Sequence record: OQ721909
Source of the DNA: Escherichia phage vB_VIPECOOM01
Direction: 5' to 3' (one strand)
Length of the DNA: 64,000 nt
The position numbers and the translations under genes were made by a program. A model generated the notes under the pieces. That model searched no databases. It was not told where the DNA came from and saw only the letters and a program-made list of their open reading frames with translations. Below, piece by piece: positions 25,235 through 41,054 of the stretch; position 1 is the stretch's first letter, and each line of letters opens with the position of its first letter.

Positions 25235-25287
25235 CCTCATGTTATGTAAGTAAAATTACTATAACACAACACGAGGGACTTGTAAAC
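25235..25287 (-). promoter_or_regulatory. conserved 53-bp early-promoter element, copy A (upstream of alt.-3-like ORF)
   Basis: Minus-sense 'GTTTACaagtccctcgtgttgtgttatagta...'; 49/53 identical to copy B. Confidence 0.55.
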
Positions 25288-27344
25288 TACATTTTGAACT
25301 TTTTAGACATTCCGTTGATGTTAACCAAAGAAGCCAAGATTTGAGAAACTTCGTTTTCCTCTTCTTTTGATTCTTCTACAAGGAATTGATTAAATCCAGC
25401 CATTGGACGAACTTCACCAGTTTCCATCAGATGGTCGCCATCATATACCGATTCTTCTAATTGTTCAGAAGGAGGAACGATTGTGCCTTCGACTAGATAC
25501 TTATTATAAGCAGTTTCTTTCATCATGTACGTACTCACTTTATTAATCTTCAGTAGAATTCCACGTGGTAGAATAATTTCAGCTTCTGATGGAAATCCTG
25601 ATAAATGACCTGGAACGATAACTTTGATTCGCTCAGCTCCTTTAATTACCATACCAACGCTAGTTTCAGCATCTTCATTCGCATAAGCAGAGCGACTGCC
25701 CATATGCATCAAATCTTCTGCGTCAACTGAACCTTCTCCTTCACCAGAAAATACTGCACCGGAATCATCTAGAGCCATATAGTTTTTACCATACTCACCG
25801 AAGATATTTGGTTTAAGCGATGTGGATACGAAGTTCTTGAAATAAAACATTTTATTTTCAATATTATGGCGTAAAGTTTTGAAAGTAACTTCTTGTCCAC
25901 GGTAAAGTGTAGTTCCTGGAGGAAGAACTGAACCTTTAGCAAAGGCAGAATCCATTGTCTCGATGTGTTTAATAGCTCGTTCCATATATTCTTCACGGGT
26001 AGAATCTGGTTTACCTAAAAGGAACGAGTTCATTTCAACATATGAATCTGCACAATAATCTTCAATTACATCAGATTCAGCTTGAGTCAGTCCTTTTGGA
26101 GTTACTTCGGTGCTTGCGTATTCATATGCCTGGGCGGCAGATTCATTAATCAATTTATAAATGCCATTCATGACAAATTGAATAATAGCTACCTTTTCAT
26201 CTGGCGTGGCTTTAGAACCTTTAACTAAATCATTAACAATTTTCTTAATAACATCAAAGCTGTTAGAAATATTAATATCAGAAAGATCACTTAAAATTTT
26301 ATCAGTTTTATAATCAAAAAATTCTTTATTCTTTAAATATTCTTGAGAACCTTGATATGTTATATCGCTCTGTAATTTAATAGATGGATCACGTAAACGT
26401 GCATGAGCCAATGCAATATGATTTCGGAAGCTTTCTAGTTCATAATCGTTAGATTTAAAACGAGAAGCGCTTCTCATACCACCTATAGCTCCTTTGCTGA
26501 AGTTTGAACCAATTTGAATAACGCCAGAGTTCATTGATCCTTCTGCTTTATATACCGGAACTTTAGATTCAAACTCTTGATATTTCTTAGCAGCGAAGCT
26601 ATCGCCCTGAAGTGAAGCATCAACAGTAGAATATTGAGCTTGTGCTGCTAATCGACGACTAATTTTAGTTTTCTGAATAACAGCTTGATCCGTGCGCTTA
26701 TCATTTTCTAAAGCAATAGAAGCAGCAACAGCAACAGCTTTAGGAACAGCATTACCCGTTTTAACGTCTACATAAACATCACCAACCTTTGATTCAACTT
26801 TTGTGAATAACTCAGTTGAAATAGGAGGTACACCTGGAATGTCTTCTAAATTGGCATTTTTACGGTAAACCATAATATATGCATACTTTTTATCGTAATC
26901 CCAGATTTCCTTTAAAAGAACATATCGACCTGCTCCTTTAGTACGTACTAAACGGTCGGCAATAACTTGCATTTGACGAGCTGCGCCGTTTGTTTTACTC
27001 TTTAGTACGCGGAATAAGCATGCATCAATTTTATACTGTTTCATTGTTTGAAGAGCAGTATCAAAAACCGCATTAATGACACCAATTGGGTTTCCACCCA
27101 AGTTTTTAAGTTTAACTAATGATAGTTTTTCATTGACACCTATCATTACGATATGCATCATTTTATCGCCTGGCTTAACGTTTTTATTTGTATCACCACC
27201 AGAGGTGTATGTACAAAATCTAAATCCAGGAAGCACACTTTCTTCACCGGCTTGAATAGCAAAAATTTGAGGTATTTTATGCTTAGGATTTAAGTTAACA
27301 ACCGGCGCCGAAGCGCCGTCAAATAATTCTGTAATAAGTTCCAT
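25287..27344 (-). CDS. Alt-like ADP-ribosyltransferase paralog
   Basis: 685 aa; N-terminal about 230 aa near-identical to adjacent Alt; ART motifs 'LYRGQ' (Arg), 'FVSTSL' (S-T-S), C-terminal 'YDGDHLMETGE'. Confidence 0.85.
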   Translation of the reverse strand: MELITELFDGASAPVVNLNPKHKIPQIFAIQAGEESVLPGFRFCTYTSGGDTNKNVKPGDKMMHIVMIGVNEKLSLVKLKNLGGNPIGVINAVFDTALQTMKQYKIDACLFRVLKSKTNGAARQMQVIADRLVRTKGAGRYVLLKEIWDYDKKYAYIMVYRKNANLEDIPGVPPISTELFTKVESKVGDVYVDVKTGNAVPKAVAVAASIALENDKRTDQAVIQKTKISRRLAAQAQYSTVDASLQGDSFAAKKYQEFESKVPVYKAEGSMNSGVIQIGSNFSKGAIGGMRSASRFKSNDYELESFRNHIALAHARLRDPSIKLQSDITYQGSQEYLKNKEFFDYKTDKILSDLSDINISNSFDVIKKIVNDLVKGSKATPDEKVAIIQFVMNGIYKLINESAAQAYEYASTEVTPKGLTQAESDVIEDYCADSYVEMNSFLLGKPDSTREEYMERAIKHIETMDSAFAKGSVLPPGTTLYRGQEVTFKTLRHNIENKMFYFKNFVSTSLKPNIFGEYGKNYMALDDSGAVFSGEGEGSVDAEDLMHMGSRSAYANEDAETSVGMVIKGAERIKVIVPGHLSGFPSEAEIILPRGILLKINKVSTYMMKETAYNKYLVEGTIVPPSEQLEESVYDGDHLMETGEVRPMAGFNQFLVEESKEEENEVSQILASLVNINGMSKKFKM

Positions 27345-27347
27345 GAT

Positions 27348-29444
27348 TTATCCTTGAACGAACTTGTAAGGCATGTTTGTAATATCTATGCAAGACGCAA
27401 TAATTCCAAGAGATGATTCTGCTTTCTGTTTAACATTTGATGAAACAAATGATGCAAAGTCAACTCTGTCTTCTATTTCAATATCACCTGTCATTGCAAC
27501 CAATTCACCAGTTTCCATTAAATGGTCTCCATCATAGATTACCGATTCGGTGAGTTCTTCCGTAGTCATAACTTCAGCTTGAATGAGTTTTGTATTATTA
27601 GATGTTGTTCCGTCATTATTGGAAGCATCAGTTATTTTATTAACTTTGACCATCAATCCGCGTGGTAAAATAACTTCAGCTTCAGTTGCTATTCCGAGAC
27701 TTCCTGGATATACAACATTAACTTTATGAGCTCCATCAATTGCCCATCCTATTTGAACTTTAACGTATTCAGGATTTTCTTTATACGCTCTTATTTCGTT
27801 TGGATTAATAGTTATTCCTTCTTCATTTTTATCAACTGTTAATTCATTGCGAGCTTCTGGTTCTAAAAGACCAATACCAGCATGCGTAATTCCAAAACGT
27901 CCAAAAATGATAGGAGTTAAAGAAGTAGATACAAAATTTCTGAAATAGAACACTTTATTTTTAACTAGTGCTTCGTATATAGGAGCAGTCATACTTTGAG
28001 CACGATAAACTGTAATGCCTTCTGGTATACGGTCACCATTTTCAAAGGCTGAATCTAAATTATTTATCGCAGATTCAATTTCTTTTTCACTCATTACATC
28101 ATATCGTTCTGGATTATAGCGTCCTAAAAGAAGATTATTGATGTCAGTATATCCTGATCCACAATACTCTCTAATGCCGCGCTTTTGCGATGGAGTATAT
28201 TTAGAACCATCACGGGCAATAGTAATATCAATCATTGGACCTGCACCAATTCCAGAAAAGCTATAAATCATTCGTTTGAGGAATTTAGTTTTTGCTGCGT
28301 TCCAGGAATTTTTAGTTATTTCTTCCCAGACTTCATCTGGCTGTCCTTTACGGGTTTTATTATGTTTATCAAGCCAAGTATCTTTATATTCTTCAAAGAA
28401 TTTATTAATAGCTGCTGCATACTTCTCTAAACATTTTATTGAAGTAGTTGGTTCATTTTTGATCGCGTTAAAAATTACATCTTTAATTTTTTCAGAAACT
28501 TCATTAACCTCACTTTTTGAAAAGAATTTATAGTCATAGTGAAGTTCATCTGCAGTCCCTTCGGCAATAATTTTTGCTGCCTTAGTTTTAGAAGCTAATG
28601 AATTAATTCCAAGTTTCATTTCTTCCGCTTCGGGAATTAAAGGAGCTGTAGCAGGTTTATTGAAATTAGCTGCAGTAGATTCATACTTCTGGAATAATTC
28701 ACTTTCAAATCTAGAAGATTCCAATGACTGACTTTGTGCAATTGCTCTACGGGAAATTTTAACTTTAACTATTACAGCTTGGTCAGAACGTTTATCGTTT
28801 TCTTGCGCAATAGATGCTGCAATTGCCTCATTTTTAGTTACTTGAGCTCCAGTATCTTTATTGATATAAACATCGCCGACCTTCGATTCAACTTTAGTAA
28901 AGAGCTCGGTACTAATTTCTGGAACTCCTGGAATGTCTTCTAGTGATACATTTTTGCGATGTATAAGAATATATGCATACTTTTTATCGTAATCCCAGAG
29001 TTCCTTAAGAAGGACGTATCTGCCACCTGAACGACTACGGATAAGTCTATCAGCAATAACTTGAATTTGTCGAGCTTGACCAGCAGTTTTAGACTTAAGA
29101 ATACGGAGCATACAGGCATCAATTTTATACTGACGCATCGTCTGCATTGCAACAGTAAAAACTGAATTGATATAATTAATTGGGCTTGGACCGAGACCTT
29201 TTAATTTAGCAATTGAACCTTTAGCAGTTAATGTAAAAGGAACAATATGCATCATTTTATCGCCCATTTTTAAATCGCGATTAGTATCACCTCCAGATGT
29301 ATAGGTACATAAACGAAAGCCTGGTTGTTCAATTGCGTCATCAACATGAACTGAAAAAATTTGCGGTATTTTCTTCTTTGGATTTAAGTTTGTAATCGGA
29401 AGAGTAGTATCTTCGTCAAATAATTCTGTAATGAGTTCCATCAT
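27348..29444 (-). CDS. alt: Alt, packaged mono-ADP-ribosyltransferase
   Basis: 698 aa; ART motifs 'VYRAQ', 'FVSTSL'; late promoter TATAAATA 15 nt upstream; adjacent to gene 30 as in T4. Confidence 0.9.
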   Translation of the reverse strand: MMELITELFDEDTTLPITNLNPKKKIPQIFSVHVDDAIEQPGFRLCTYTSGGDTNRDLKMGDKMMHIVPFTLTAKGSIAKLKGLGPSPINYINSVFTVAMQTMRQYKIDACMLRILKSKTAGQARQIQVIADRLIRSRSGGRYVLLKELWDYDKKYAYILIHRKNVSLEDIPGVPEISTELFTKVESKVGDVYINKDTGAQVTKNEAIAASIAQENDKRSDQAVIVKVKISRRAIAQSQSLESSRFESELFQKYESTAANFNKPATAPLIPEAEEMKLGINSLASKTKAAKIIAEGTADELHYDYKFFSKSEVNEVSEKIKDVIFNAIKNEPTTSIKCLEKYAAAINKFFEEYKDTWLDKHNKTRKGQPDEVWEEITKNSWNAAKTKFLKRMIYSFSGIGAGPMIDITIARDGSKYTPSQKRGIREYCGSGYTDINNLLLGRYNPERYDVMSEKEIESAINNLDSAFENGDRIPEGITVYRAQSMTAPIYEALVKNKVFYFRNFVSTSLTPIIFGRFGITHAGIGLLEPEARNELTVDKNEEGITINPNEIRAYKENPEYVKVQIGWAIDGAHKVNVVYPGSLGIATEAEVILPRGLMVKVNKITDASNNDGTTSNNTKLIQAEVMTTEELTESVIYDGDHLMETGELVAMTGDIEIEDRVDFASFVSSNVKQKAESSLGIIASCIDITNMPYKFVQG

Positions 29445-29464
29445 ATCCTCTCTAGTGTTTATTC

Positions 29465-29472
29465 TATTTATA
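29465..29472 (-). promoter_or_regulatory. late promoter TATAAATA (alt)
   Basis: Plus 'tatttata' = minus TATAAATA about 20 nt upstream of alt ATG. Confidence 0.6.
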
Positions 29473-29477
29473 AAATT

Positions 29478-29495
29478 AAAGGCCCGAAGGCCTTT
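29478..29495 (-). terminator. hairpin between alt.1-like ORF and alt late promoter
   Basis: aaaggcc-cgaa-ggccttt. Confidence 0.5.
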
Positions 29496-29682
29496 AATAA
29501 TCTAGTGGTAAGAGAGTACGGTATATTTCAAACTTCGGACCTTTTTCATAGGCATCAAATGTTTCTGTAAATTTATTATAAGCATATGCATCTACAAATT
29601 CAAGAACGATTTGTGATACAGAAGTAGAAACATCTCCACCTTCTTTTTGAGCCACGACAATTGTTTCTAAGTAAGCTTTCAT
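29494..29682 (-). CDS. hypothetical protein (alt.1-like)
   Basis: 62 aa, ATGA-type overlap with gene 30 stop. Confidence 0.5.
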   Translation of the reverse strand: MKAYLETIVVAQKEGGDVSTSVSQIVLEFVDAYAYNKFTETFDAYEKGPKFEIYRTLLPLDY

Positions 29683-31139
29683 AGACCAGTTACCTCATGA
29701 AAATCACCAAATACATCCTCGAATGTATTAGCTTTAGTTTTATCTTCACGTAAACGAATCGCAATTGGAAGAAATAATTTAACGTAATCAGTGCGGCCAT
29801 CAGATTTTAACCAACCATTGCATTCGCACTCTAGAATTTTTCCAATATAATAATTTTGGTTTTCCATAATGCGAGTACGGTCAAGTTCATGTGATTTTAC
29901 ACCGGCTTTATCTTTTAAGCCTGAACCTGCATTTACTTTAATTTTTCCACACTCTGATTCAAGAATAAATCCACCTGCTTTAGTAGGGTCTTTACGGTGA
30001 GGATAAATTCCTACAATTTTTAAATCAACATCAATTACTTCTTTAAATTTATAAAGATTTTTTGAACGAGCATTTTCCCACAATCCATCGGTATTTTTGA
30101 GAATAATACCTTCAAGACCTTGGTCAATATATTTTTTATAAATTACCTTAGCTTCATCTAGGTTATTTACTACCTGGTTTTCAATTAAAATTACTTTATC
30201 ATATCCTGATGTCATTTGTTCTAGTTTAGAAAAACGTACATCATATTTTAAACGAAACGTCGGAAGACCGTATATTTCTACCAACGGAACATAATCCCAG
30301 ACCTGAAACTTCATGCATTTGGCTTCTTTTTCTGAAATAGTTCCCTTTAAAGATTTATTGGCGATTCCATTAGAAGCAGTACGAGATTCAGCTACTTCGG
30401 CAAACTCTTTAGCTTTACTGATTTCAGGAGCGTCAAAAAGAAAATCTAGGCCTTCTGGTTCCTTTTCAACTTGCTCATGGTATACCAATTCGCCATCAAT
30501 TAACACACCTTCTGGATGAATCTGGCGGGCTTCAGCGGTCATTTTGATTAACTCTTCCTTAAGAAGATCTAATCCTAGATATTCATTACCAGCTCGTGAT
30601 AAAAGACGAACATCATCTAATTCATCACCTCGAACTTCAGCAAAACACCGAGCTCCATCTGCTTTTAACTGTGCAAAGGCTGGAAATTTGATATTCTTAC
30701 TAATGCCTTTTTCATCATAAGAACTTGCCAGCATTTGAGGTTGTTCAGGAATTAAACCTGGCCAAACTTTGTTTGCAATAGATACTGAAGCACCGCATTC
30801 AAGGTCTCGCATCATAACTCGACGCAAAACTTCAACATCATCCTTTTTACCATCGGTGATATATCCAGTTAATTCCTCAATTGCTGCATTGCCAGTTAAT
30901 TTCCGAGTAGCTAACGTGAATTCAATGAAGTCAAGCATATCGGTAATAGTCAACATTCCAAAACTCTGGGTAGCAATACCAGGTTTAGGCCATTTCTTGA
31001 TATAATACTGTAACCCACGAGAATAAGTCAGACGATATACTCGTTTAAGCAATTCATTATCTTTATTCTTTTCAAGAATTGCTTGCTTCTGCTTAGTTGA
31101 TCCAATAGATGCTATTTCATTCAGAATTTTAAGAATCAT
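29679..31139 (-). CDS. 30: ATP-dependent DNA ligase gp30
   Basis: 486 aa; motif I 'KADGAR'; matches recalled T4 ligase. Confidence 0.97.
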   Translation of the reverse strand: MILKILNEIASIGSTKQKQAILEKNKDNELLKRVYRLTYSRGLQYYIKKWPKPGIATQSFGMLTITDMLDFIEFTLATRKLTGNAAIEELTGYITDGKKDDVEVLRRVMMRDLECGASVSIANKVWPGLIPEQPQMLASSYDEKGISKNIKFPAFAQLKADGARCFAEVRGDELDDVRLLSRAGNEYLGLDLLKEELIKMTAEARQIHPEGVLIDGELVYHEQVEKEPEGLDFLFDAPEISKAKEFAEVAESRTASNGIANKSLKGTISEKEAKCMKFQVWDYVPLVEIYGLPTFRLKYDVRFSKLEQMTSGYDKVILIENQVVNNLDEAKVIYKKYIDQGLEGIILKNTDGLWENARSKNLYKFKEVIDVDLKIVGIYPHRKDPTKAGGFILESECGKIKVNAGSGLKDKAGVKSHELDRTRIMENQNYYIGKILECECNGWLKSDGRTDYVKLFLPIAIRLREDKTKANTFEDVFGDFHEVTGL

Positions 31140-31405
31140 TGTTCATCCTTCAAAGTTTGATTTACATCTCTATTATAAATCAATTCATCATTAAGCTCAG
31201 GCAAAGACTTATGATATGTAGTTCTAACTTTATTTCCTTGCATCCAGTGCTTGACGTAAATGAAACCTTGCTCTACACATTTTTTAAAAATTCGTTCGTC
31301 TTTTTGAGCTCGGAATTCTGGATTGCATCTAAAAAATTGATTTACGTGACCGTAATCACGTGTAGTATTACCTTCATTTTCATAAATAGTATGAACAACA
31401 AACAT
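31136..31405 (-). CDS. hypothetical protein (30.1-like)
   Basis: 89 aa, coupled upstream of gene 30. Confidence 0.55.
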   Translation of the reverse strand: MFVVHTIYENEGNTTRDYGHVNQFFRCNPEFRAQKDERIFKKCVEQGFIYVKHWMQGNKVRTTYHKSLPELNDELIYNRDVNQTLKDEQ

Positions 31406-32244
31406 TAGAATGCTCCTTGAAAAATATTATCACCACTAGTAGGTCTATTATACAAATACTCTATGCCACCAGGTTTAATATAGTTCCATGTCTGAAACGG
31501 ATGTGTCTGATATGGATGATATAGATGATTATAAGGATTTAATCCAGGCGTTCTCCAGGTAGTGTTCCAAGGAAAAGAATCATTTTTAACCATCTTCTCA
31601 ATTAAATCTTTTATAGCTTTTTCACTATCAAAACTTTCTTTATTTTCCTTCGGCGAAAAAAGCTTATTTTCTACATCATTCCATGTATAAACTCGCTGTG
31701 CAGTTTTTGGAATATTGTCACGCTCTCCTCGAGCCATCCAATAAACTGGAACATTTAATATTTCACTCGCATGATCGCAGTGATGAGCGAGATCGTCAAT
31801 ATAACAAATTACGTTATATTTCTCTTTTGCCTTTTTGAACAGCTCTTCTTTTGAAGAATCATGACCACACATCATTACTTCTGAGAAGGCACCAGGAAAA
31901 AGAGCATTCAAATTAAATTGACGATTCAACAGAGCGTCAATAGAATCACCCAATGCTGTAACAGCTACAAAATTATAATCTTCTTTTAATTTGTTAATTA
32001 CACACAGGGCATCTTTATACGGAGACAAGTAACGAATAAAATCTGAACGATTGTATTTTTCAATTAACTTGACGCCAAGTTCTTCGTCACAATTAAAGAG
32101 TTTACCTGGAGAAATAAATTTCTCATCTTGGATCATTTTTAAAATATGTTCTAATGGAAGATTATATTTCTGAGCAAAATAAGGAAGGCCTGATTGCCAG
32201 CTTAAACATACTCCATCAATATCAGTTAAAATAGTAGGCTTCAT
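31405..32244 (-). CDS. HAD-superfamily-like hydrolase (30.2-like)
   Basis: 279 aa; N-terminal 'ILTDIDGV' resembles HAD motif I DxDG(T/V). Confidence 0.65.
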   Translation of the reverse strand: MKPTILTDIDGVCLSWQSGLPYFAQKYNLPLEHILKMIQDEKFISPGKLFNCDEELGVKLIEKYNRSDFIRYLSPYKDALCVINKLKEDYNFVAVTALGDSIDALLNRQFNLNALFPGAFSEVMMCGHDSSKEELFKKAKEKYNVICYIDDLAHHCDHASEILNVPVYWMARGERDNIPKTAQRVYTWNDVENKLFSPKENKESFDSEKAIKDLIEKMVKNDSFPWNTTWRTPGLNPYNHLYHPYQTHPFQTWNYIKPGGIEYLYNRPTSGDNIFQGAF

Positions 32245-32699
32245 AGAGAGTCTCTTAATAGGTTTAACACATCAATAAATTCAGCTTCGGTTAGTATTGT
32301 ATCATCTTTTGTTAGACCACTAGCCATGCTGTGCTTCAAAACTTTTCCTTTCGAAGCTTGTAATGCATCACGAAAGCCCCTGTTTTGGATCGCTGCTTCA
32401 AAATATGCATTTGTGTATAATTCTTTCCACGCTGGAGAGTATCTTGAAAATGGAACTCCAAGCCAGAACAACGTGCCACGGTCCTGAGCTCTAGCATAAG
32501 ACCTTCCAGCTTGTTGCGCATCCAATCCGGACATCCCAAATATACGTCTTTGCTGTTCAACATTTTTCACCTTACATCCTTGGAGGAATCCTTCGAGACC
32601 TCCAAATTGGATACCATCCATAACGAAAGGCCATTGGGCGAAATTACTTAATGCACATGATGGCCATCTAAAATTGCTTCTTATCTCTAGCTCAGACAT
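32241..32699 (-). CDS. NADAR/YbiA-like (DUF1768) putative N-glycosidase (30.3-like)
   Basis: ORF-track start 32705 is TTG; ATG 32699 gives 152 aa; motif 'ALSNFAQWPFVMDGIQFGGLEGFLQGCK' vs YbiA 'FSNFAAWP..VDG...SEHYFQAQK'. Confidence 0.6.
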   Translation of the reverse strand: MSELEIRSNFRWPSCALSNFAQWPFVMDGIQFGGLEGFLQGCKVKNVEQQRRIFGMSGLDAQQAGRSYARAQDRGTLFWLGVPFSRYSPAWKELYTNAYFEAAIQNRGFRDALQASKGKVLKHSMASGLTKDDTILTEAEFIDVLNLLRDSL

Positions 32700-33379: not shown

Positions 33380-33419
33380 AGTATTTTCCTCAGTAAGGGG
33401 CCGAAGCCCCTATTTTATT

Positions 33420-33785
33420 TTAAATATCAAATTCGTTAAGAACTACATCAAAAATCGCTTCAAGATGCTCAGGTTTAGCTCTGTTACTCAGAATATGACG
33501 AATCCAAGTTTTAACCAGAAGCTTACGATTGACGCCATTCCAGCAAGGATGAGTCCCTAAATCACGTTGACGGAAATCATCATCTAATGCGATTTTAAAA
33601 GAAGAACCTTCTTTCGTGATTGAAACTGTGATGCCATTTTCAAATCGCATATAAACGTAGTTAGGAGTCATATACTGTTCAATTTCGCATACTGATCCAT
33701 TTTGATGTTTCCAAAGGCAAATAGTATCATTAGAACCTGCAATACCGTTAGAAACATATTTACGTTCAAAGTTGATGTAGTTCAT
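33420..33785 (-). CDS. hypothetical protein
   Basis: ORF-track start 33797 is TTG; ATG 33785 preceded by GGAG; 121 aa; early promoter upstream. Confidence 0.5.
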   Translation of the reverse strand: MNYINFERKYVSNGIAGSNDTICLWKHQNGSVCEIEQYMTPNYVYMRFENGITVSITKEGSSFKIALDDDFRQRDLGTHPCWNGVNRKLLVKTWIRHILSNRAKPEHLEAIFDVVLNEFDI

Positions 33786-33821
33786 TTTATTCTCCAAGAT
33801 GTTTAATTGTGGTACAGGTAT

Positions 33822-33850
33822 ATAATATCATATCCTGTACCAAAGTAAAC
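33822..33850 (-). promoter_or_regulatory. early promoter (GTTTAC, 17 nt, TATTAT) with embedded inverted repeat
   Basis: Minus-sense 'GTTTACtttggtacaggatatgaTATTAT'; IR ggtacagg/cctgtacc at 33811-33841. Confidence 0.5.
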
Positions 33851-33852
33851 AA

Positions 33853-34185
33853 TTATTTTACTACTTTCCAGTGCTGCATGTCAAGTTTACCAACTTTTTT
33901 CATCTTCTCAATTAAGCGTTCTGCACGTTGGCGAGCTGTAACATAATACCATTCGCCTAATTCATTTTGTTCAATTTTTCCAACGATTACTGTATTCAAT
34001 TCATAAATCCAACCAGTAAAGAAATTATGAACTTGAATTGTAAAGGTGAAATCTGTTCCCATACCTTCTGTTGTTTCTACTTCAATAATATCACCTTCAA
34101 CTGCCATTAAGAACCACATAGTTTCATCATATTTACCATTGAAGCATTTAGTTTTAACTGTAGCGTTCAGATTAATCGTTTTCAT
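33853..34185 (-). CDS. hypothetical protein
   Basis: 110 aa; early promoter upstream (34214-34242). Confidence 0.5.
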   Translation of the reverse strand: MKTINLNATVKTKCFNGKYDETMWFLMAVEGDIIEVETTEGMGTDFTFTIQVHNFFTGWIYELNTVIVGKIEQNELGEWYYVTARQRAERLIEKMKKVGKLDMQHWKVVK

Positions 34186-34213
34186 TTTATTCTCCTTTGC
34201 TTGTGTAAGATAA

Positions 34214-34242
34214 TACTATCACAAAGGAACTATACTGTAAAC
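34214..34242 (-). promoter_or_regulatory. early promoter (GTTTAC -35)
   Basis: Minus-sense 'GTTTACagtatagttcctttgtgatagtattat'. Confidence 0.45.
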
Positions 34243-34272
34243 AACTTTGTGCAATCTTTGGAAAATAAAAAA

Positions 34273-34290
34273 GGACTCCCGAAGGAGTCC
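34273..34290 (-). terminator. hairpin terminator downstream of small basic ORF
   Basis: ggactcc-cgaa-ggagtcc followed on minus strand by T-run. Confidence 0.6.
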
Positions 34291-34295
34291 TCAAC

Positions 34296-34514
34296 TTATG
34301 CTTTCTGCTTACCAAAACGAGAAGCATCATCTCGAAGAACCGCACGTGCTCGGCGCATGATCTTCTCAACAGTTTGATTGATACGAGAGTTCGACCCACG
34401 CTTGTAACCAGCGCGTTTAGAATCACCAACTTTCTTTTCAACTGCTTTCTTTGCTTTAGCTTGTTTTGCCATTATAAATTCTCTTTTAAATGAAAATGCA
34501 GGACTTATTGGCAT
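34296..34514 (-). CDS. small highly basic protein (start uncertain; may begin at internal ATG 34472, 'MAKQAKAKKAVEKK...')
   Basis: 72 aa Lys/Arg-rich ORF; hairpin terminator immediately downstream. Confidence 0.4.
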   Translation of the reverse strand: MPISPAFSFKREFIMAKQAKAKKAVEKKVGDSKRAGYKRGSNSRINQTVEKIMRRARAVLRDDASRFGKQKA

Positions 34515-34666
34515 TGCCTGCGCAAGCCCTCAAGGGGAACATAGGTTTTGAGTATTTACCGACAGGATAACCATAAACCTCGTCAACATTCAAGAGGTAC
34601 ACCGTAAAACAAAGTTCGACGGCTCCTCGATTTTAGCTCACACTAAGGCAGTGAATCTCCAATAAA

Positions 34667-34915
34667 TTACTTCAGTGTTACCACAAAGTGACGAACTGCT
34701 TTTCGTGCAGCAGAAGCCAGAGGCTTAGCATACTTAAGTTCATCTTTTTCCTGGAGCTCAGCAGCTAATGCAGTTTGAGCAGGATTCAGATGTTTGAAAT
34801 AACGCAGGATTTCAAGGGCTTCGGCTTCAACATCAATAGATGCGCCATAGTTTTCGTGACCATTATTCCATGCGTTTCGTTGCAGTTCAAGAGCGTGTTG
34901 TAATTGTTTAATCAT
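34667..34915 (-). CDS. rIII: rIII lysis-inhibition accessory protein
   Basis: 82 aa as T4 rIII; syntenic next to gene 31. Confidence 0.85.
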   Translation of the reverse strand: MIKQLQHALELQRNAWNNGHENYGASIDVEAEALEILRYFKHLNPAQTALAAELQEKDELKYAKPLASAARKAVRHFVVTLK

Positions 34916-35054
34916 TTAAAAATTCTCGTTAGAGATTAAAACTCGGTAGTCACGTTCTTCTGAATTTCATCTTCTTTCGACAGATCTCTCAGTTGTAGAC
35001 TACCACGTAGAATTGTTCGGTTAACTTATTATTCCGACACCCAATTCATATTAT

Positions 35055-35062
35055 TATTTATA
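35055..35062 (-). promoter_or_regulatory. candidate late promoter (rIII) with long leader
   Basis: Minus-sense TATAAATA immediately downstream of gene 31 stop. Confidence 0.35.
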
Positions 35063-35398
35063 TCACTTATAAAGACACGGAATAGCTTTATAGTGACAGG
35101 TAACGAATTTTTGTTTAATTTCTTTTGGCTGCTTAAGACCTAGAGCTACAAAAGGATGCGGAACGTTTCGAATTTGACCAACTGGAAGAGAAGTCAAATC
35201 ACCAACTTCGCAGAAACCTTCAGGAACATCAGGACCAACAGAGTGAACTACACACAGTTCAGGAACTTCACCTTGAACACGTTTACCGATAATGAGTCCT
35301 GATTCTGTAACTTCTTCATCACCAGCTTGCGCAGGTTCAGAAACTAAAATAACATATTCACCGACAGCACGAATTGGTAGCTGTTGTACTTCAGACAT
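35063..35398 (-). CDS. 31: co-chaperonin gp31 (GroES-like)
   Basis: 111 aa as T4 gp31; MotA-box middle promoter upstream. Confidence 0.92.
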
Positions 35399-35428
35399 CG
35401 TTTTTCCTTTTTGTTAACAGATGAATTA

Positions 35429-35453
35429 ATAATAACAAATAATTCTTAAAGCA
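35429..35453 (-). promoter_or_regulatory. MotA-dependent middle promoter (gene 31)
   Basis: Minus-sense 'aTGCTTTA', 12 nt, then 'TATTAT'. Confidence 0.6.
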
Positions 35454-35454
35454 T

Positions 35455-35763
35455 TTATTTACCAATAAATTGAAGCAAATGCTCAACTTTCATACCATTA
35501 ACGGAAATCAATTTGTCAATAGAAAAACCTCGCCATGCACCAATCTCAACATCAAATACTGGAATCATATCAGTAGATTCTTTCCGAGTAGATTCAGTCA
35601 ATTTACCGGTTTGCATGGTTGGCATAAAGTCTGCATCACGAGTACCTTTCATAGTACGAATAGTACCATCAGACTTTTCAAAAACCACGTTTGAAATACC
35701 CATGGACAATTTAGTTTTCAAAATTTCACGAATTGCTACTTTCTGCTCAGTTGTCAGTTTCAT
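35455..35763 (-). CDS. hypothetical protein (31.1-like)
   Basis: 102 aa ORF. Confidence 0.5.
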   Translation of the reverse strand: MKLTTEQKVAIREILKTKLSMGISNVVFEKSDGTIRTMKGTRDADFMPTMQTGKLTESTRKESTDMIPVFDVEIGAWRGFSIDKLISVNGMKVEHLLQFIGK

Positions 35764-36000
35764 TTATTTACCTATCACAGTTTTAATATGAGTTGTTCCA
35801 CGTTCTTTAAGAGTGGAAAGTAATTTTTGGCATTTTTCTAAATCAGATTTCCAACTATACGGTCTATCAATACAAACCCATTCTGACTTATAATACTGCT
35901 TCCATTTAGAGAAAAAATATTTCTTATACTCTACAGCAAATGAAATGTTCTCGTTAGAATAAGAACTAATTGCTGTGAGCTGTACCAAACGAAATTTCAT
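35764..36000 (-). CDS. hypothetical protein (31.2-like)
   Basis: 78 aa ORF coupled to cd. Confidence 0.5.
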   Translation of the reverse strand: MKFRLVQLTAISSYSNENISFAVEYKKYFFSKWKQYYKSEWVCIDRPYSWKSDLEKCQKLLSTLKERGTTHIKTVIGK

Positions 36001-36581
36001 TATTCACCACAGAATTCGTTGATATTTTCCCAGTTTAACTTATTCAAGTTTTTCTTAGGAACATTAAACACTTCAATACCTGCATTTCGCAGAATATCAT
36101 CCCAGCCAGGTTTATTTTTATCGTATGTTTCACAATAAACCAACTTTTTAATTCCAGATTGAGCTATCGCTTTTGCACAATCTGGGCAAGGAGAAAGTGT
36201 TACATACATAGTAGCACCTTCAATTGAAGAACCATTTCGTGCAGCAAACAAAATTGCATTTAGTTCAGCATGAATTTCATTTTTAGACGACCATTCAGAA
36301 TGAGCGCTGCGGTGTTCTTTCGCCAAGACAAAACGATCAGTTGAACCAAATGATACACATTCAGGCTTATGACCTTGAATGATAGTATGTTTAGGTTTAT
36401 TCAACAACCAACCTTGCTCGGCAGCATAATCACAGCAATTCACACCGCCTGCAGGCGAACCGTTATATCCAGTAGAAATAATACGTCCATTCTTTTCAAT
36501 TACTGCTCCTACCTTCCAGGAGCAACATTTTGATTCTTGTGATACTAAATATGCAATTTGAAGTACTGTACTCGCTTTCAT
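36000..36581 (-). CDS. cd: dCMP deaminase
   Basis: 193 aa; zinc motifs 'HAELNA' and 'PCPDCAKAI'. Confidence 0.95.
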   Translation of the reverse strand: MKASTVLQIAYLVSQESKCCSWKVGAVIEKNGRIISTGYNGSPAGGVNCCDYAAEQGWLLNKPKHTIIQGHKPECVSFGSTDRFVLAKEHRSAHSEWSSKNEIHAELNAILFAARNGSSIEGATMYVTLSPCPDCAKAIAQSGIKKLVYCETYDKNKPGWDDILRNAGIEVFNVPKKNLNKLNWENINEFCGE

Positions 36582-36916
36582 TTCATAATCACCAGATAAG
36601 CAGATTTAGCAGTTTCAACACGATAAATTTCGTGACGAAGTTTAGTTATACTTTTAATAACAGAACTAATTATATTCTGCCCATCTTTAAAGCGGTTTTT
36701 CTTATCAATAAAAATTGCACCAGCCATCTTTTTGTGAAGCTCAACTGGATACTTCGTCACAATAATAGCATCATACACAGAAGGATGAATACTATTCACT
36801 AAAGTATCGTTCATCAAAGTTATTCTAATGAACTGAGCTGTTTCAGAGTCAAGCGCTCTATGATCGCCAGTATCATTTTCAAGACAATTATCAATTATAT
36901 CAGTTAAATTCATCAT
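36578..36916 (-). CDS. hypothetical protein (cd.x)
   Basis: 112 aa; ATGA coupling to cd. Confidence 0.5.
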   Translation of the reverse strand: MMNLTDIIDNCLENDTGDHRALDSETAQFIRITLMNDTLVNSIHPSVYDAIIVTKYPVELHKKMAGAIFIDKKNRFKDGQNIISSVIKSITKLRHEIYRVETAKSAYLVIMK

Positions 36917-37149
36917 AGTACGCCATACACCCTTTGTGCTTCAACTAATCCATCAAAATCCAATTTGAGATGCGTTATTTGGTCACCATCACCTGGATTC
37001 ACAATTACTAATACTGAACGAGGAGTTTCGGTAATAACACGAACCGATGTTTCTGGAAATCGTTCAGAAACCTTATTTACTAATTCCTGAGCAAATAGTT
37101 TAACTTTTTCTTGGAATTCTTTAACAGTAATTGGTTTTTCGCTTAGCAT
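36913..37149 (-). CDS. hypothetical protein (cd.x)
   Basis: 78 aa. Confidence 0.5.
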   Translation of the reverse strand: MLSEKPITVKEFQEKVKLFAQELVNKVSERFPETSVRVITETPRSVLVIVNPGDGDQITHLKLDFDGLVEAQRVYGVL

Positions 37150-37670
37150 GTTGATCCCAGCTCCTTACTTTCAACGTTTTTAACTAATTTGACAGAAACT
37201 AATTCAGCATCTTGAGTAATCATTACCGGACCTTCTTCATACTCTTCGAGATATTCTAGAGCTTTCTTTTTAGCTTCTTCCTTCGTATCAGTTTGAGCAT
37301 AGATATAAAACATACAACCAGTAATACCTACTACTTTCCACTTAATTTCTTTATCAGCTTTAATTTCAAATTTACTGACAGAGTCATCTTTTTGAACTTC
37401 TTCGAAAAAAGAATATTCTAACATATAAGCAATTGAAAATAACGGGCTAACTTTATAGGATTCGCCCATTACATCAACAGCTTTATACCAGCAATCATCA
37501 ATTTCACGTTTAATGCTAATAACATTTTTCGCAGGATCTATTTTTACTTTAAATGAATTTTCCCCAATAAACTGGGCAATTCGTTTATTAGCCCCACAGG
37601 TTTCATTAAAAATATCTTTATATCCAGCTTTAAAGCGATAAACCTTATCTTCTTCAAACCATTCGCTCAT
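37143..37670 (-). CDS. hypothetical protein (cd.x)
   Basis: 175 aa; early promoter upstream. Confidence 0.55.
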   Translation of the reverse strand: MSEWFEEDKVYRFKAGYKDIFNETCGANKRIAQFIGENSFKVKIDPAKNVISIKREIDDCWYKAVDVMGESYKVSPLFSIAYMLEYSFFEEVQKDDSVSKFEIKADKEIKWKVVGITGCMFYIYAQTDTKEEAKKKALEYLEEYEEGPVMITQDAELVSVKLVKNVESKELGSTC

Positions 37671-37700
37671 TTCAATTTCCTCATTTGTTTTGGTAGAGCT

Positions 37701-37730
37701 ATAATATCACAACTCTACCGTAAAGTAAAC
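37701..37730 (-). promoter_or_regulatory. early promoter (GTTTAC, 18 nt, TATTAT) with embedded inverted repeat
   Basis: Minus-sense 'GTTTACtttacggtagagttgtgaTATTAT'; IR ggtagag/ctctacc at 37692-37719. Confidence 0.5.
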
Positions 37731-37732
37731 TG

Positions 37733-38008
37733 TTAAATTGCTTTGAATTCTGATGTCTGCGATTCAAAACGAATATCGCCTTTGATAACTAGCTCAGCAT
37801 CAAGACCGAACACAACAATGATATGCGCGGAGCCTGGATACAGTGTAATGGCGATAGAATCAACCTGGTCTGGAAGTAAAGTGTTCAATACATGAGTCAC
37901 TTGAGCATGAATTCGAAGCTCAGCTGCGTTATCAAGCTTTTCAAACATATTATTAGCTATAATTTGGCTAAACACTACTTCTACGATTTTAGAATAAGTC
38001 GGAAACAT
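37733..38008 (-). CDS. hypothetical protein (cd.x)
   Basis: 91 aa. Confidence 0.5.
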   Translation of the reverse strand: MFPTYSKIVEVVFSQIIANNMFEKLDNAAELRIHAQVTHVLNTLLPDQVDSIAITLYPGSAHIIVVFGLDAELVIKGDIRFESQTSEFKAI

Positions 38009-38010
38009 AT

Positions 38011-38211
38011 TTACCTCACATAATTTTCTTCAAGCCAATCAATAACATCTAAAGCATTATCAAAAATTGAGCCATCTACTTTGTCTTCTGTTTCATAATC
38101 AAGAACATCTAAGCCTACTCTTCCATCAACAATAGGCCATAAACAAAATAGATATTTCTTTTCTTTTTCAATCTTATCGCAAAGACGATAAATCTTTTCT
38201 AAGTTATTCAT
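38011..38211 (-). CDS. hypothetical acidic protein (cd.x)
   Basis: 66 aa. Confidence 0.45.
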   Translation of the reverse strand: MNNLEKIYRLCDKIEKEKKYLFCLWPIVDGRVGLDVLDYETEDKVDGSIFDNALDVIDWLEENYVR

Positions 38212-38400
38212 AAGTTTTCCATGGTAAAGGCAGTTTAGTTTTCTTTACTGTTAGTTCAACATCAGGATTCTTTTCTCTTAATTTAAGACATTCCTCCCAA
38301 GCCCTGATTTCACTAGTGAATACGCAAAATTGCCCATCACTAGTACCAACTAAACCACTATTTACAATAACAATAGCCCAAGTTTCATGATGTAAAGCCA

Positions 38401-38401
<1 letters not shown>
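38204..38401 (-). CDS. hypothetical protein (start set at ATG overlapping pseT stop, TGATG)
   Basis: ORF track gives 75 aa from 38431; ATG at 38401 gives 65 aa with translational coupling to pseT. Confidence 0.4.
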
Positions 38402-39622
<1,221 letters not shown>

Positions 39623-39626
<4 letters not shown>

Positions 39627-39853
39627 CTATTTTTCTCAACCAATGATTGAATATAATCATGCAGGTCTTTAGATGCTTTACCCCACTTATTTTGATATTC
39701 ATTTTTAAGATTAGCACGTGATTGAGCTAATAAAACATCATTAGTTGGAGGTAAAGATTCTAATCGTTGAATCTGGCGACCATAAATCATTGCAGCCATT
39801 TCGGATTCATAAATCAATCCTTTAAGATGTTCAAATTGATGCCATGAAATCAT
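39623..39853 (-). CDS. hypothetical protein
   Basis: 76 aa. Confidence 0.45.
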
Positions 39854-40149
39854 TTACATTTATCCTCTTTTAACTCTTGACGATAATAACATATCATAGT
39901 TTTCTGGTCATGCACATATCGTTTTACATCATTAAGCCAAATACGAAATTCCTGGGAATCTTCAAATGGCATACCGACCCAAGCTTTACCATCGATAACT
40001 TTAACTTGCCAAGATAGTTTAGCTTCATCATATGACTTTATCTGCACAGGCCAATTAGGATGAACTGTTTCTTTCTTTACTTCTAGAGGCTTTGTCGAAC
40101 AACCAACTAGAAGACCAATAGATAATATTACTGCTGATAGTTTAATCAT
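39850..40149 (-). CDS. outer-membrane spanin lipoprotein (Rz1-like; pseT.2-like)
   Basis: 99 aa; signal peptide with lipobox 'LLVGCS'; 4-nt overlap with upstream i-spanin. Confidence 0.65.
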   Translation of the reverse strand: MIKLSAVILSIGLLVGCSTKPLEVKKETVHPNWPVQIKSYDEAKLSWQVKVIDGKAWVGMPFEDSQEFRIWLNDVKRYVHDQKTMICYYRQELKEDKCK

Positions 40150-40499
40150 TTAGAAAGGTCCTGGATGTCTTCTGCAAACTTGTTGAAGGAGTTGTTGATT
40201 TGTTTTTCAACCAATCCTGGTTTATGAGCCACCACATCCGCCTTCTTTGCGTCTTTGCGCAGTTTTTCATTTTCACGCTCAATAGCAGCAATTGCCTCAC
40301 GATTTTTATTATTCATCGCATCAATATAATTATATTGAATTTTTAAATCATTTAATGCTAAAGCGTTTTCATTGGCCGTTTTTGTAATTTCTACAACAGA
40401 CGTTTCTAATCTTTCAATTTTACTTTTTAAAATTAAAGAAGTTCCGCCCAATGCAATTACAATTAATAACAAACCCGCTGTCGTATTACTTAATTGCAT
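40146..40499 (-). CDS. inner-membrane spanin (Rz-like; pseT.3-like)
   Basis: 117 aa; N-terminal TM helix 'AGLLLIVIALGG', then charged coiled-coil. Confidence 0.65.
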   Translation of the reverse strand: MQLSNTTAGLLLIVIALGGTSLILKSKIERLETSVVEITKTANENALALNDLKIQYNYIDAMNNKNREAIAAIERENEKLRKDAKKADVVAHKPGLVEKQINNSFNKFAEDIQDLSK

Positions 40500-40996
40500 A
40501 AAGTTTTAATAACCTCTACAATATCGTCTTGAGAAAGACCGTTAATTAAAATATGATGTTCAGCCGGAGATTTAGAAATTTTAAAGCATGCCTCAACATC
40601 TTCTGCCATATCTGATGCACTACGATTTGGATTACTAATTCCAAGACGATGTTTTCCCGTTAAAGGATTAACGATGATATAGCATTTACAGTTATTAATA
40701 TGAACATTAGGTTGAGTCTGATTAATGAACACATCACAATCATATTTTGCAAGCTGATTTTCTAAAAAGACTTTCATCTCCTCAACCGCATCAGGAAGCA
40801 TATCACGGGCTTGCTCAAGACGACGATTTCGATATTCTTTAATGGTCGTTTTCCGCTTGACTTGCTTAGCTAAATCTTTCTTAAGATCGGTGATATATCC
40901 AACTCGACGATTTCCTTTAAATACAGAAATCCCATCTGTAGTATCACCGTATGCTTCAACGACCATTTCAGTAGTAATAAGCTGTAAATCCATCAT
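40490..40996 (-). CDS. alc: Alc, inhibitor of host transcription
   Basis: 168 aa (T4 Alc about 167 aa); syntenic between pseT.3 and rnlA; conserved early promoter upstream. Confidence 0.8.
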   Translation of the reverse strand: MMDLQLITTEMVVEAYGDTTDGISVFKGNRRVGYITDLKKDLAKQVKRKTTIKEYRNRRLEQARDMLPDAVEEMKVFLENQLAKYDCDVFINQTQPNVHINNCKCYIIVNPLTGKHRLGISNPNRSASDMAEDVEACFKISKSPAEHHILINGLSQDDIVEVIKTLCN

Positions 40997-41001
40997 AAAG
41001 T

Positions 41002-41054
41002 CCTCATGTTATGTCAGTAAGACTACTGTAACACAACACGAGGGACTTGTAAAC
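41002..41054 (-). promoter_or_regulatory. conserved 53-bp early-promoter element, copy B (upstream of alc)
   Basis: Minus-sense 'GTTTACaagtccctcgtgttgtgttacagta...'. Confidence 0.55.

Follow-up and report, generated by a model that had tools for sequence, protein, structure and literature searches.

Two near-identical 54-nt cassettes in a Tequatrovirus genome, one before alc and one before an alt.-3 homologue, probably act both as an early start signal and as a translational insulator, since according to the predicted folds the Shine-Dalgarno (SD) sequence would be hidden in read-through RNA and exposed in the RNA started by the cassette itself. In this model, a sigma-70 early promoter is built into an RNA hairpin, in which the 5′ arm would correspond to the spacer separating the -35 box from the -10 box, the apex to the -10 box and the start site, and the 3′ arm to the leader including the SD. 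RNA initiated at the cassette's own promoter would lack the 5′ arm, leaving the SD free and allowing alc and alt.-3 to be translated immediately after infection. RNA arriving from upstream would contain both arms and form a hairpin of -22 to -29 kcal/mol in which the SD is buried, and alc and alt.-3 would hence not be translated from later-class read-through transcripts. Such read-through is proposed to enter the alc cassette via rnlA and the alt.-3 cassette via two alt genes, starting at a late promoter.

The two cassettes and their early promoters

A repeat search of the window (the whole 64,000-nt stretch analysed) identified a direct repeat of 54 nt on the minus strand, at positions 25234-25287 (cassette A) and 41001-41054 (cassette B), with 50/54 identical positions (93% identity) and a spacing of 15767 bp. 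The initial annotation gave an identity of 49/53 over 25235-25287, which is correct, and the identity runs one base further, to the A of GAGGA. Read on the minus strand from 25287 to 25234, cassette A is GTTTACAAGTCCCTCGTGTTGTGTTATAGTAATTTTACTTACATAACATGAGGA; the corresponding stretch from 41054 to 41001 differs at four positions, i.e., position 3 of the -10 box (T/C), two bases of the loop and a single base near +4. These are the only two copies in the window when it is searched with a 31-nt core pattern allowing up to 3 mismatches, with 0 expected in 100 shuffles.

Cassette A serves the alt.-3 homologue (phrog_1739; 24936..25226, minus strand), and its first base is the G of the TAG stop codon of a second Alt-like ADP-ribosyltransferase gene (25287..27344, minus strand), from which transcripts would read into the cassette. 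Cassette B serves alc (40490..40996, minus strand), encoding an inhibitor of host transcription, and its first base lies 3 nt past the TAA of rnlA (gene 63; 41058..42182, minus strand), whose transcripts would read into the cassette with no terminator between. These CDS coordinates agree with the earlier description of both blocks as sitting directly after an upstream stop and before an alt.-3-like gene or alc. The same description had the shared leader ending at the ATG, and this holds only in part: the leader is SD-like as stated, but the identity stops at the SD (GAGGA), 4 nt from the ATG for alc and 7 nt for alt.-3.

In the promoter scan, both cassettes display TTTACA, a 17-nt spacer and TAYAGT with a TG before the -10. 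In cassette A, the -35 hexamer TTTACA is located at 25281..25286 (minus strand; the preceding G 25287 is the last base of the TAG stop) and the -10 hexamer TATAGT, with TGn just upstream, at 25258..25263 (minus strand). The corresponding elements of cassette B are TTTACA at 41048..41053 and TACAGT, also with TGn, at 41025..41030 (both minus strand). T4-type early promoters were defined by a -35 GTTTAC(A/T), a 17 +/- 1 bp spacer and a -10 TAnnnT, which selects 37 sites in T4, and both cassettes belong to this sigma-70 class, including the extended -10 (TGn). From a 7-nt spacing after the -10, transcription of cassette A is predicted to start around A 25251, and the spacing likewise places the putative start of cassette B around A 41018. 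The late-promoter motif TATAAATA was absent from both cassettes in a motif scan.

The window phage is a Tequatrovirus, and T4 contains an equivalent pair, 53/54 identical, at 123093 and 136336, to which the window cassettes are orthologous. This orthology, together with the T4 early-promoter geometry, bears out the early-promoter reading of the initial annotation. In T4 omics data (PMC9697503 supplements), alc and alt.-3 were classed as early at both the RNA and the protein level, rnlA as early RNA and late protein, and the alt.-1/-2 RNA as ‘middle’. The cassettes resemble the T4 ‘uber’ early promoters (UP/-35/TGn/-10; Hinton 2010, PMC2988021) in their GTTTACA -35, 17-bp spacer, TGn and TAnnnT -10 and, as for T4 early promoters in general (PMC2988021), further positions are conserved outside the sigma-70 elements. 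They differ from them in that coding sequence reaches the -35, and an A/T-rich UP-element region appears to be absent; the 25 nt upstream of the -35 are coding and have an A+T content of 0.68, which is low within the range of the T4 promoters (0.60-0.88). Furthermore, the identity of the T4 pair is far above that of the family: among 31 T4 early promoters, alc and alt.-3 rank first in similarity out of 465 pairs (53/54); the runner-up reaches 46/54, the 99th percentile ~41/54 and the median 26/54. Similar identity at all early promoters, which had been named at the outset as evidence against selection beyond the polymerase contacts, was hence not seen in this alignment.

A predicted hairpin pairing the promoter spacer with the SD

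In predicted folds, read-through RNA forms a hairpin with an MFE of -22.1 kcal/mol (z -3.9) in cassette A and -28.6 kcal/mol (z -4.3) in cassette B, and both hairpins persist in 251-nt contexts. RNA beginning after the -10 is predicted to be unstructured (-2.2 and -4.1 kcal/mol, z ~ -0.4). Hairpin A comprises 13 + 4-5 bp and hairpin B 17 + 5 bp, so that the dyad noticed in the initial annotation exists but is longer than the 9 bp it was given; it was also missed there that the 3′ arm of the dyad is the SD sequence.

In hairpin A, the predicted 5′ arm (CCUCGUGUUGUGU; 25264..25276, minus strand) corresponds to the promoter spacer and the 3′ arm (ACAUAACAUGAGG; 25235..25247, minus strand) contains the SD GAGGA (25234-25238), while the apical stem-loop (AGUA-AUUU-UACU; 25249..25260, minus strand) overlaps the -10 box and the predicted start. 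In hairpin B, the predicted 5′ arm (AAGUCC-C-UCGUGUUGUGU; 41031..41048, minus strand) consists of the last -35 base and the whole spacer. Its 3′ arm (ACAUAACAUGAGGACUU; 40998..41014, minus strand) contains the SD GAGGA (41001-41005) and three alc-specific bases beyond the repeat, extending the hairpin to 40998, and in its apical stem-loop (CAGUA-GUCU-UACUG; 41015..41028, minus strand) the C at position 3 of the -10 pairs with G 41015. The AAG of the cassette thus pairs with the alc-specific CUU just past the repeat, and is without a partner at alt.-3. In both cassettes, 4/4 SD bases are predicted to pair with the promoter spacer. In 21 of 25 promoter hairpins, the sense strand folded more stably than the antisense strand (Wilcoxon p = 6e-4), which suggests that the dyad acts as RNA rather than DNA.

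With almost all of its bases contributing to the promoter, the stem or the SD, the whole block would be expected to be conserved. The earlier proposal that the identity goes beyond polymerase contacts is supported by this use of nearly every base by the hairpin and by the rank of the pair at the top of the 465 T4 pairs.

The model also depends on transcription entering the cassettes from upstream, and a terminator scan found no terminator-like site at or before either of them. A late-promoter motif TATAAATA is located just upstream of alt (29465..29472, minus strand; motif scan), preceded by a terminator hairpin (29481-29492), and late read-through into cassette A is likely to originate from this late promoter. 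A bidirectional terminator-like hairpin after alt.-3 (24910..24931; terminator scan) is the first terminator that lies downstream of cassette A.

Conservation across genera and origin of the twin copies

Two copies of the cassette are present in each of ~498 related genomes, with 0-3 changes, and the consensus 54-mer is the same at the alc and alt.-3 loci. Pair counting in the Tequatrovirus stems gave 98% pairing but no significant covariation, the pair counts not exceeding those of shuffles, because variation within the genus is too small. All extra pair types (5/5) are one-sided wobble changes. Pair 27:40 was seen as U-G, C-G and U-A, and lower-stem substitutions keep pairing in 5/6 cases.

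No consensus structure emerged when MAFFT and RNAalifold were applied to the alc-upstream regions of 9 genera, since the 3′ arms do not line up in register. A covariance model built from the Tequatrovirus cassettes alone recovered the sites of Karam, Dhaka, Winkler and Braga, all in the sense orientation (E <= 0.006), in a cross-genus alignment too ragged for counting pairs. The replacement analysis therefore combined per-sequence folds at promoter-anchored positions with a test of cognate versus non-cognate duplexes. In these folds, 4/4 bases of the SD are paired with the spacer upstream of alc in Gelderland-, Karam-, Jiaoda-, Dhaka-, Winkler- and Bragavirus. The sequences of the arms differ, and spacer positions 7-23 show 2-5 pair types. 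In addition, cognate spacer/leader duplexes upstream of alc had a mean of -18.6 kcal/mol versus -10.0 for non-cognate ones across genera (p = 2e-4). In all genera examined, the stop codon of the upstream gene lies directly at the -35. The SD-sequestering stem is absent from the alc promoters of RB69 and VR26 and from the alt.-3 promoters outside Tequatrovirus, and the architecture is hence dispensable. Scans for Alc and Alt.-3 relatives in IMG/VR and in JGI metagenomes yielded 11, 5 and 5 loci, and the wider sampling was that of the GenBank phage collection.

A similar complementarity was found among T4 early promoters as a whole, in which cognate spacer/leader pairs scored -11.4 versus -6.7 for non-cognate ones (p = 8e-5). 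Those T4 early promoters that cover the SD also lie directly after an upstream stop more often than the others do (8/10 versus 11/27; p = 0.04). It is conceivable, and here proposed tentatively, that a class of T4-type early promoters uses its spacer as an anti-SD and acts as a ‘temporal insulator’, permitting translation only from immediate-early own transcripts and keeping the gene silent in read-through RNA of the middle and late classes. Such a class would be conserved through arm-for-arm covariation in at least 7 Straboviridae genera, and the alc/alt.-3 twins would represent a unit transplanted whole between genes. Further members are predicted from complementarity between spacer and SD before regB and denV in T4 and RB69 and, in T4, before motB.2 (at a promoter right after dexA), nrdC.8 and ndd.4.

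In Dhaka-, Gapriver- and Mosigvirus, the alt.-3 promoters contain another spacer, in which there is a small internal hairpin. The cassette common to both loci is therefore specific to Tequatrovirus and stems from a copying event; relative to the other genera, the alt.-3 cassette has exchanged the tract from GTTTACA to ACATGAGGA. The probable source of the alt.-3 copy is the alc cassette, copied in the Tequatrovirus ancestor, a donor direction suggested by parsimony and by the 3-bp stem extension at alc. The copied tract would have been bounded by the GTTTACA and ACATGAGGA motifs common to both promoters, and both copies would since have been held by purifying selection. Of the ‘recent duplication or recombination’ put forward in the initial annotation, the copying is retained, but ‘recent’ is at odds with the ~498 genomes that already carry both copies.

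Two further scenarios were considered. Repeated homogenisation of alc and alt.-3 in other genera was rejected on the basis of the RB69 pair, which ranks 228/435 in ungapped and 31/435 in gapped comparisons. Ongoing gene conversion in Tequatrovirus was not supported by five genomes carrying both copies, in which the variants (TACAGT in alc, loop changes) are not common to the two copies of one genome. Upstream of cassette A, the region is rearranged between phages, the window phage having a complete second alt gene where T4 has alt.-1/alt.-2 remnants.

Relation to known elements and alternative explanations

SD-sequestering hairpins with an internal promoter have been described for T4 e, soc, 49 and I-TevI, and lower T4 lysozyme synthesis ~100-fold (Uzan and Miller 2010, PMC3014915). 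In these genes, the long upstream RNA places the SD in a helix and a promoter between the arms produces a short RNA that is translated. The cassettes are predicted to share this layout, with a stable helix whose 3′ arm holds the SD and a start between the arms, giving an RNA without the 5′ arm. They differ in that the internal promoter of the T4 genes is late and restricts translation to the late period, whereas that of the cassettes is an early sigma-70 promoter rather than a late one (gp55, TATAAATA). In addition, the anti-SD arm is the cassette's own -35/-10 spacer, which would restrict translation to the first minutes. An early promoter with the spacer as anti-SD is not among the examples in that review (PMC3014915). 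The cassettes appear to represent a new twist on known T4 regulation rather than a new kind of element.

If true, a hairpin that silences early genes in lasting read-through RNA would constitute a third, cis-encoded layer, and would explain why early-promoter regions are often conserved far beyond the polymerase contacts. Promoter, anti-SD and SD would be movable as one functional module, and some of the promoter-early stem-loops (PeSLs) discussed below would be seen as insulating translation rather than transcription. In annotation and phage engineering, expression from an upstream promoter should not be assumed for genes located behind such cassettes.

Translational coupling, in which the SD would remain hidden until the stem is opened at its base by the ribosome that completes the upstream gene, appears quite unlikely. 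It would fit the stop codon abutting the -35 in every genus examined, and a 5′ arm ~6-13 nt past the stop which, given the known ribosome footprint, may be near the reach of a terminating ribosome. Abutting stops are also enriched among the SD-covering T4 early promoters (8/10 versus 11/27 of the others; p = 0.04). However, the main stem of the window phage and of T4 begins ~13-14 nt away, counted from the first base of the stop, which places it at the limit of the footprint or past it, and is long (13-17 bp plus the apical helix), so that little would open. Moreover, Alc and Alt.-3 belong to the early proteins of T4, whereas the accumulation of RnlA is late (PMC9697503 supplements). It is very improbable that the cassettes are only a recombination substrate or relic, copied by PeSL-type shuffling or gene conversion with a dyad that has no function at either site. 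The sharing of the cassette by both loci only in Tequatrovirus, the rearrangement just upstream of cassette A (second alt versus alt.-1/alt.-2) and the documented PeSL crossovers between SD and -10 (PMC2839356) would be expected of a relic, but not the retention of both copies in ~498 genomes with 0-3 changes, the pairing kept by 5/6 lower-stem substitutions or the same stem geometry at alc in genera without the repeat. Recombination between the two direct repeats, which lie 15.8 kb from each other, would furthermore remove the ligase gene and gene 31, making the repeat a liability rather than a benefit. An RNA processing or stability element (e.g., an RNase III-type site), a protein-binding site, as suggested in the initial annotation, or a DNA cruciform is hardly credible as an explanation. 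Hairpin B, with ~22 bp in total, is near the size of an RNase III substrate, but the cassettes match no Rfam family, the arms are completely different in sequence from genus to genus, which speaks against a sequence-specific binding protein, and G-U pairs favour the sense RNA in 21/25 cases, which speaks against a cruciform or symmetric DNA site.

Of the elements described so far, the PeSL comes closest (Arbiol et al. 2010, PMC2839356; Comeau et al. 2014, PMC4122927). It is a compact intergenic block leading from an upstream stop to an early promoter with a stem-loop over the -10 and on to the SD and ATG. The cassettes have this structure, in the subclass ‘overlapping the -10 box’, and are likewise repeated within one genome with identity ending at the -35 and the SD, the places to which crossovers of PeSLs were mapped. 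The published reading of the PeSL stem is that of a transcription attenuator or terminator, i.e., the hairpin would curb upstream transcription and leave the downstream gene to its own promoter alone; for the cassettes, we regard this as unlikely. PeSL stems commonly lie between the -35 and -10 or overlap the -10, and one of them reduced downstream lacZ expression as much as the rrnB T1 terminator (PMC2839356). Untranslated alc RNA could also indirectly provoke Rho-dependent termination. However, the stem tested by Arbiol et al. was of a GC-rich polyG/polyC type (PMC2839356), unlike that of the cassettes, which is followed by ACACAAAAUG (alt.-3) or UAUGAUGG (alc) rather than by a U-tract, and the motif scan called no terminator-like site at either cassette. 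The SD is moreover consistently in the 3′ arm across 7 genera, which a terminator does not require. Translation or ribosomes are never mentioned in the PeSL papers (PMC2839356, PMC4122927), whereas the 3′ arm of the cassettes is the SD. The stems in PST/T4 were described as just upstream of the promoter. PeSLs are also typically numerous and found around ORFans in hyperplastic regions, while exactly two copies of the cassette, 15.8 kb apart, flank essential genes. Cassette A itself adjoins a rearranged alt paralogue.

Two copies of an early promoter and its leader

The two cassettes form a 54-nt direct repeat on the minus strand, as are all genes in their vicinity, with 50/54 identical positions and a spacing of 15767 bp according to a repeat search of the window. 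Cassette A (25287..25234) and cassette B (41054..41001) share the sequence GTTTACAAGTCCCTCGTGTTGTGTTA(T/C)AGTA(A/G)T(T/C)TTACT(T/G)ACATAACATGAGGA, and a 31-nt core pattern allowing up to 3 mismatches matches only at these two places, with none expected by chance. The first base of cassette A is the final base of the TAG stop of the second full-length Alt-like gene, with the alt.-3 homologue downstream, while cassette B starts 3 nt past the TAA of rnlA (gene 63), with alc downstream. Identity ends at the Shine-Dalgarno (SD) sequence GAGGA, 7 nt before the ATG at alt.-3 and 4 nt before it at alc. The repeat search and the gene map agree with the initial annotation, which had placed a near-identical pair after upstream stop codons and before these two genes.

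The region around the cassettes matches Escherichia phage vB_VIPECOOM03 (OQ721911.1, Tequatrovirus; record position ~96001 corresponds to window position 1) at 100% identity and hundreds of T4-like phages at 96-97%. The T4 counterparts, at 123093 (alt.-3) and 136336 (alc), are 53/54 identical to each other. Searching phage records with the 54-mer consensus returned 995 places in 498 records, all T4-like, which amounts to two per genome; a perfect copy is present in 258. The window carries a tandem pair of full-length Alt-like ADP-ribosyltransferase genes (25287-27344 and 27348-29441, minus strand), whereas T4 has a single alt gene and the short remnants alt.-1 and alt.-2, hence the DNA directly upstream of cassette A is a site of rearrangement. 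The internal repeat families D7 and D12 of the window reflect this alt paralogy.

A sigma-70 scan found in both cassettes TTTACA, a 17-nt spacer and TATAGT (A) or TACAGT (B), with TG before the -10 box. This TTTACA-17-TAnnnT arrangement with TG is the T4 early-promoter format (Hinton 2010, PMC2988021). In T4, alc and alt.-3 have early RNA and early protein, rnlA has early RNA but late protein, and the RNA of alt.-1/-2 is classed as 'middle' (PMC9697503, supplementary files 4 and 6). The likeness of the pair exceeds mere early-promoter consensus. Among 31 T4 promoters defined by GTTTAC(A/T)-N17(16)-TAnnnT with an SD and an ATG downstream, and compared over 54 nt from the -35 box, alt.-3/alc ranks first of 465 pairs; the runner-up reaches 46/54 and the 99th percentile is ~41/54. 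The proposal that identity extends beyond polymerase contacts is borne out, since the pair scores 53/54 against a T4 median of 26/54 and such identity is not general among T4 early promoters. Over the spacer and leader alone, the T4 pair shares 38/39 positions against a median of 14/39. Sub-families of alike early promoters do occur in T4 and RB69 (top RB69 pair 48/54), and alt.-3/alc is the extreme case.

A predicted hairpin over the promoter and the Shine-Dalgarno sequence

RNA reading into cassette A from upstream is predicted to fold at -22.1 kcal/mol (z -3.9), with a 13-bp lower stem (25276-25264 with 25247-25235, minus strand) below a 4-bp apical stem and a tetraloop. The corresponding fold at cassette B reaches -28.6 kcal/mol (z -4.3), with a bulged 17-bp lower stem (41048-41031 with 41014-40998, minus strand) and a 5-bp apical stem. 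Both hairpins are kept in the minimum-energy and centroid structures of 251-nt contexts. The promoter spacer forms the 5′ arm, the -10 box and expected start site are apical, and GAGG(A) ends the 3′ arm. RNA starting directly after the -10 box is predicted to be near-unstructured (-2.2 and -4.1 kcal/mol, z about -0.4). The imperfect dyad noted earlier around the -10 region is present in these folds, but as part of a far longer hairpin whose 3′ arm includes the SD.

The four differences between the cassettes in the window fall on two tetraloop bases and both sides of one apical pair, which is U-A at T4 alt.-3, U-G at T4 alc, C-G at the window alc and unpaired at the window alt.-3. Stem cells are 98.3% paired across 10 distinct Tequatrovirus variants, and 5/6 lower-stem substitutions retain pairing via wobble; this variation is small and not above shuffled controls.

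Comparison of rnlA-alc junctions was extended to VR26, two Gelderlandvirus-like contigs and eight further genera. The rnlA stop adjoins (G)TTTACA in Gelderland-, Karam-, Jiaoda-, Dhaka-, Winkler- and Bragavirus, and their spacers show complementarity to leader segments with a terminal SD (GGAGA, GAGGA or GAGAGG), giving predicted hairpins of -13 to -26 kcal/mol with arm sequences quite unlike those of T4. Anchored on the promoter, spacer positions 7-23 show 2-5 Watson-Crick or wobble pair types per position, and in 9/10 alc-upstream sequences all four SD bases are paired with the spacer in predicted folds. Spacers form more stable duplexes with their own leaders (mean -18.6 kcal/mol) than with those of other genera (-10.0 kcal/mol; Mann-Whitney p = 2e-4), and a covariance model trained solely on Tequatrovirus cassettes recovers the sense-strand sites of Karam-, Dhaka-, Winkler- and Bragavirus (E <= 0.006).

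Exceptions were also found. In Kanagawavirus the predicted hairpin adjoins the alc SD without covering it, the RB69 hairpin is small and internal to the spacer, and in VR26 the -35 box sits in the loop of a terminator hairpin. At the RB69 rnlA-alc junction (L029, 242-309), the alc leader CAACAACACGAGGAG shows complementarity to the T4-type spacer (-20.6 kcal/mol) but not to its own, and looks like the relic of a T4-type hairpin after replacement of the 5′ arm. The VR20/VR26-like contigs L013, L014 and L017 (1405-2245) carry a GGGG...CCCC terminator hairpin upstream of alc with the -35-like loop TGTACA; their tblastn Alc match (739 nt) is split over two overlapping ORFs (1465-1731 and 1643-2245), and alc may have suffered an insertion or frameshift in these phages.

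Across T4 early promoters, spacers form more stable pairing with their own leaders (mean -11.4 kcal/mol) than with those of other promoters (-6.7 kcal/mol; p = 8e-5). In about ten T4 promoters the 3′ arm covers the SD, among them those before regB, denV, nrdC.8, ndd.4 and motB.2, the last directly after dexA; RB69 has such hairpins likewise at regB, denV and others. An upstream stop abuts 8/10 SD-covering promoters vs 11/27 other T4 promoters (Fisher p = 0.04), so that the former tend to be fully exposed to read-through. Because of G-U pairs, the sense fold is stabler than the antisense fold in 21/25 promoter hairpins (p = 6e-4), a bias in the modelled folds which suggests that selection acts on the sense RNA and not on a DNA cruciform or symmetric protein site.

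There is also a second class of early-promoter hairpin, in which the 3′ arm begins right after the -10 box, the box itself forms the loop and the SD is not reached; SD sequestration does not account for its role. Such hairpins occur in T4 (comparison sequences L004-L007) at 7215, 20612, 57990, 65799, 73939, 129918 and 133331, and in RB69 at 57675, 69240, 72340, 76445 and 165269, the RB69 sub-family TAGGACTAtgttatagTAGTCCTA being an example.

Probable origin of the alt.-3 cassette

The alt.-3 promoters of Dhakavirus C6, Gaprivervirus VR26, phage vB_EQ1 and Mosigvirus RB69 have the same stop/-35 junction and a leader ...ACATGAGGA, but their spacers fold into a small hairpin of the CACAAGGATGTG type and show no pairing with the SD. 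At alc, SD-sequestering hairpins are the norm. The AAG after the -35 box pairs with a CUU that follows the SD at alc only, outside the repeat, and the RB69 alc leader retains complementarity to the T4 spacer. Judging from these sequences, the most economical reading would be that the alc cassette replaced the GTTTACA-to-ACATGAGGA segment at alt.-3 in the Tequatrovirus ancestor. Crossovers at promoter-early stem-loops (PeSLs) have been located at comparable positions (Arbiol et al. 2010, PMC2839356). Of the recent duplication or recombination originally envisaged, the copying event is upheld by the differing alt.-3 spacers of other genera, while its recency is not supported, given the presence of both copies in ~498 genomes. 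No sign of ongoing conversion was seen in five genomes with both loci, where variants are private to one copy, and the RB69 alc and alt.-3 loci show no unusual likeness.

Read-through and a possible translational control

A scan of the window found no terminator-like site at or before either cassette; the first one downstream of cassette A is a hairpin at 24910-24931. Upstream of alt, a late-promoter motif TATAAATA (29465-29472, minus strand) follows a terminator hairpin, so late transcripts would traverse both alt genes into cassette A, and the motif is the likely source of such read-through. The whole element (29465-29497, minus strand) consists of the terminator-like hairpin GGCCTTCGGGCC with a T-rich tail and, directly after it, the motif, ~24 nt before the alt ATG; it reads as a compact switch where early transcription would end and late transcription begin. 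Upstream of rnlA, a MotA-box-like TGCTTCC-N12-TACTAT with TGn (42209-42234, minus strand) overlaps the denA stop codon and is a candidate middle promoter, absent from the mapped T4 middle promoters that Hinton 2010 (PMC2988021) lists.

We infer from the folds that the cassettes hide the SD according to the origin of the transcript. Transcripts from the cassette's own promoter would have a free SD and allow immediate translation of alc or alt.-3; those from upstream would contain both arms, bury the SD and leave the gene untranslated. The same promoter-inside-helix logic is established for T4 e, soc, 49 and I-TevI, with a late promoter lying between the hairpin arms and an SD-hiding helix that cuts lysozyme synthesis ~100-fold (Uzan and Miller 2010, PMC3014915). 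The internal promoter of the cassettes is early, and its own spacer would act as the anti-SD, a case not listed in that review. The PeSL papers (PMC2839356, PMC4122927) describe promoter stem-loops overlapping the -10 box, read as terminators or attenuators and recombination sites, with no mention of translation. The cassettes belong to known kinds, namely T4 early promoters, PeSL-type cassettes and promoter-inside-hairpin control, but no description of the early-promoter version with the spacer as anti-SD, which is conserved across genera, was found in the literature examined. The overall interpretation of the initial annotation is supported and extended.

Elsewhere in the window, 34257-34340 (minus strand) matches the Rfam family of the Rhizobiales sRNA Atu_C8 below threshold (31.4 bits vs a gathering score of 50, E = 0.007), probably by chance. 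The terminator stem GGGACCGAAAGGTCCC occurs in two places 13.5 kb apart (repeat family D8), at 11392-11407 and at 24913-24928, with one copy between alt.-3 and gene 54.
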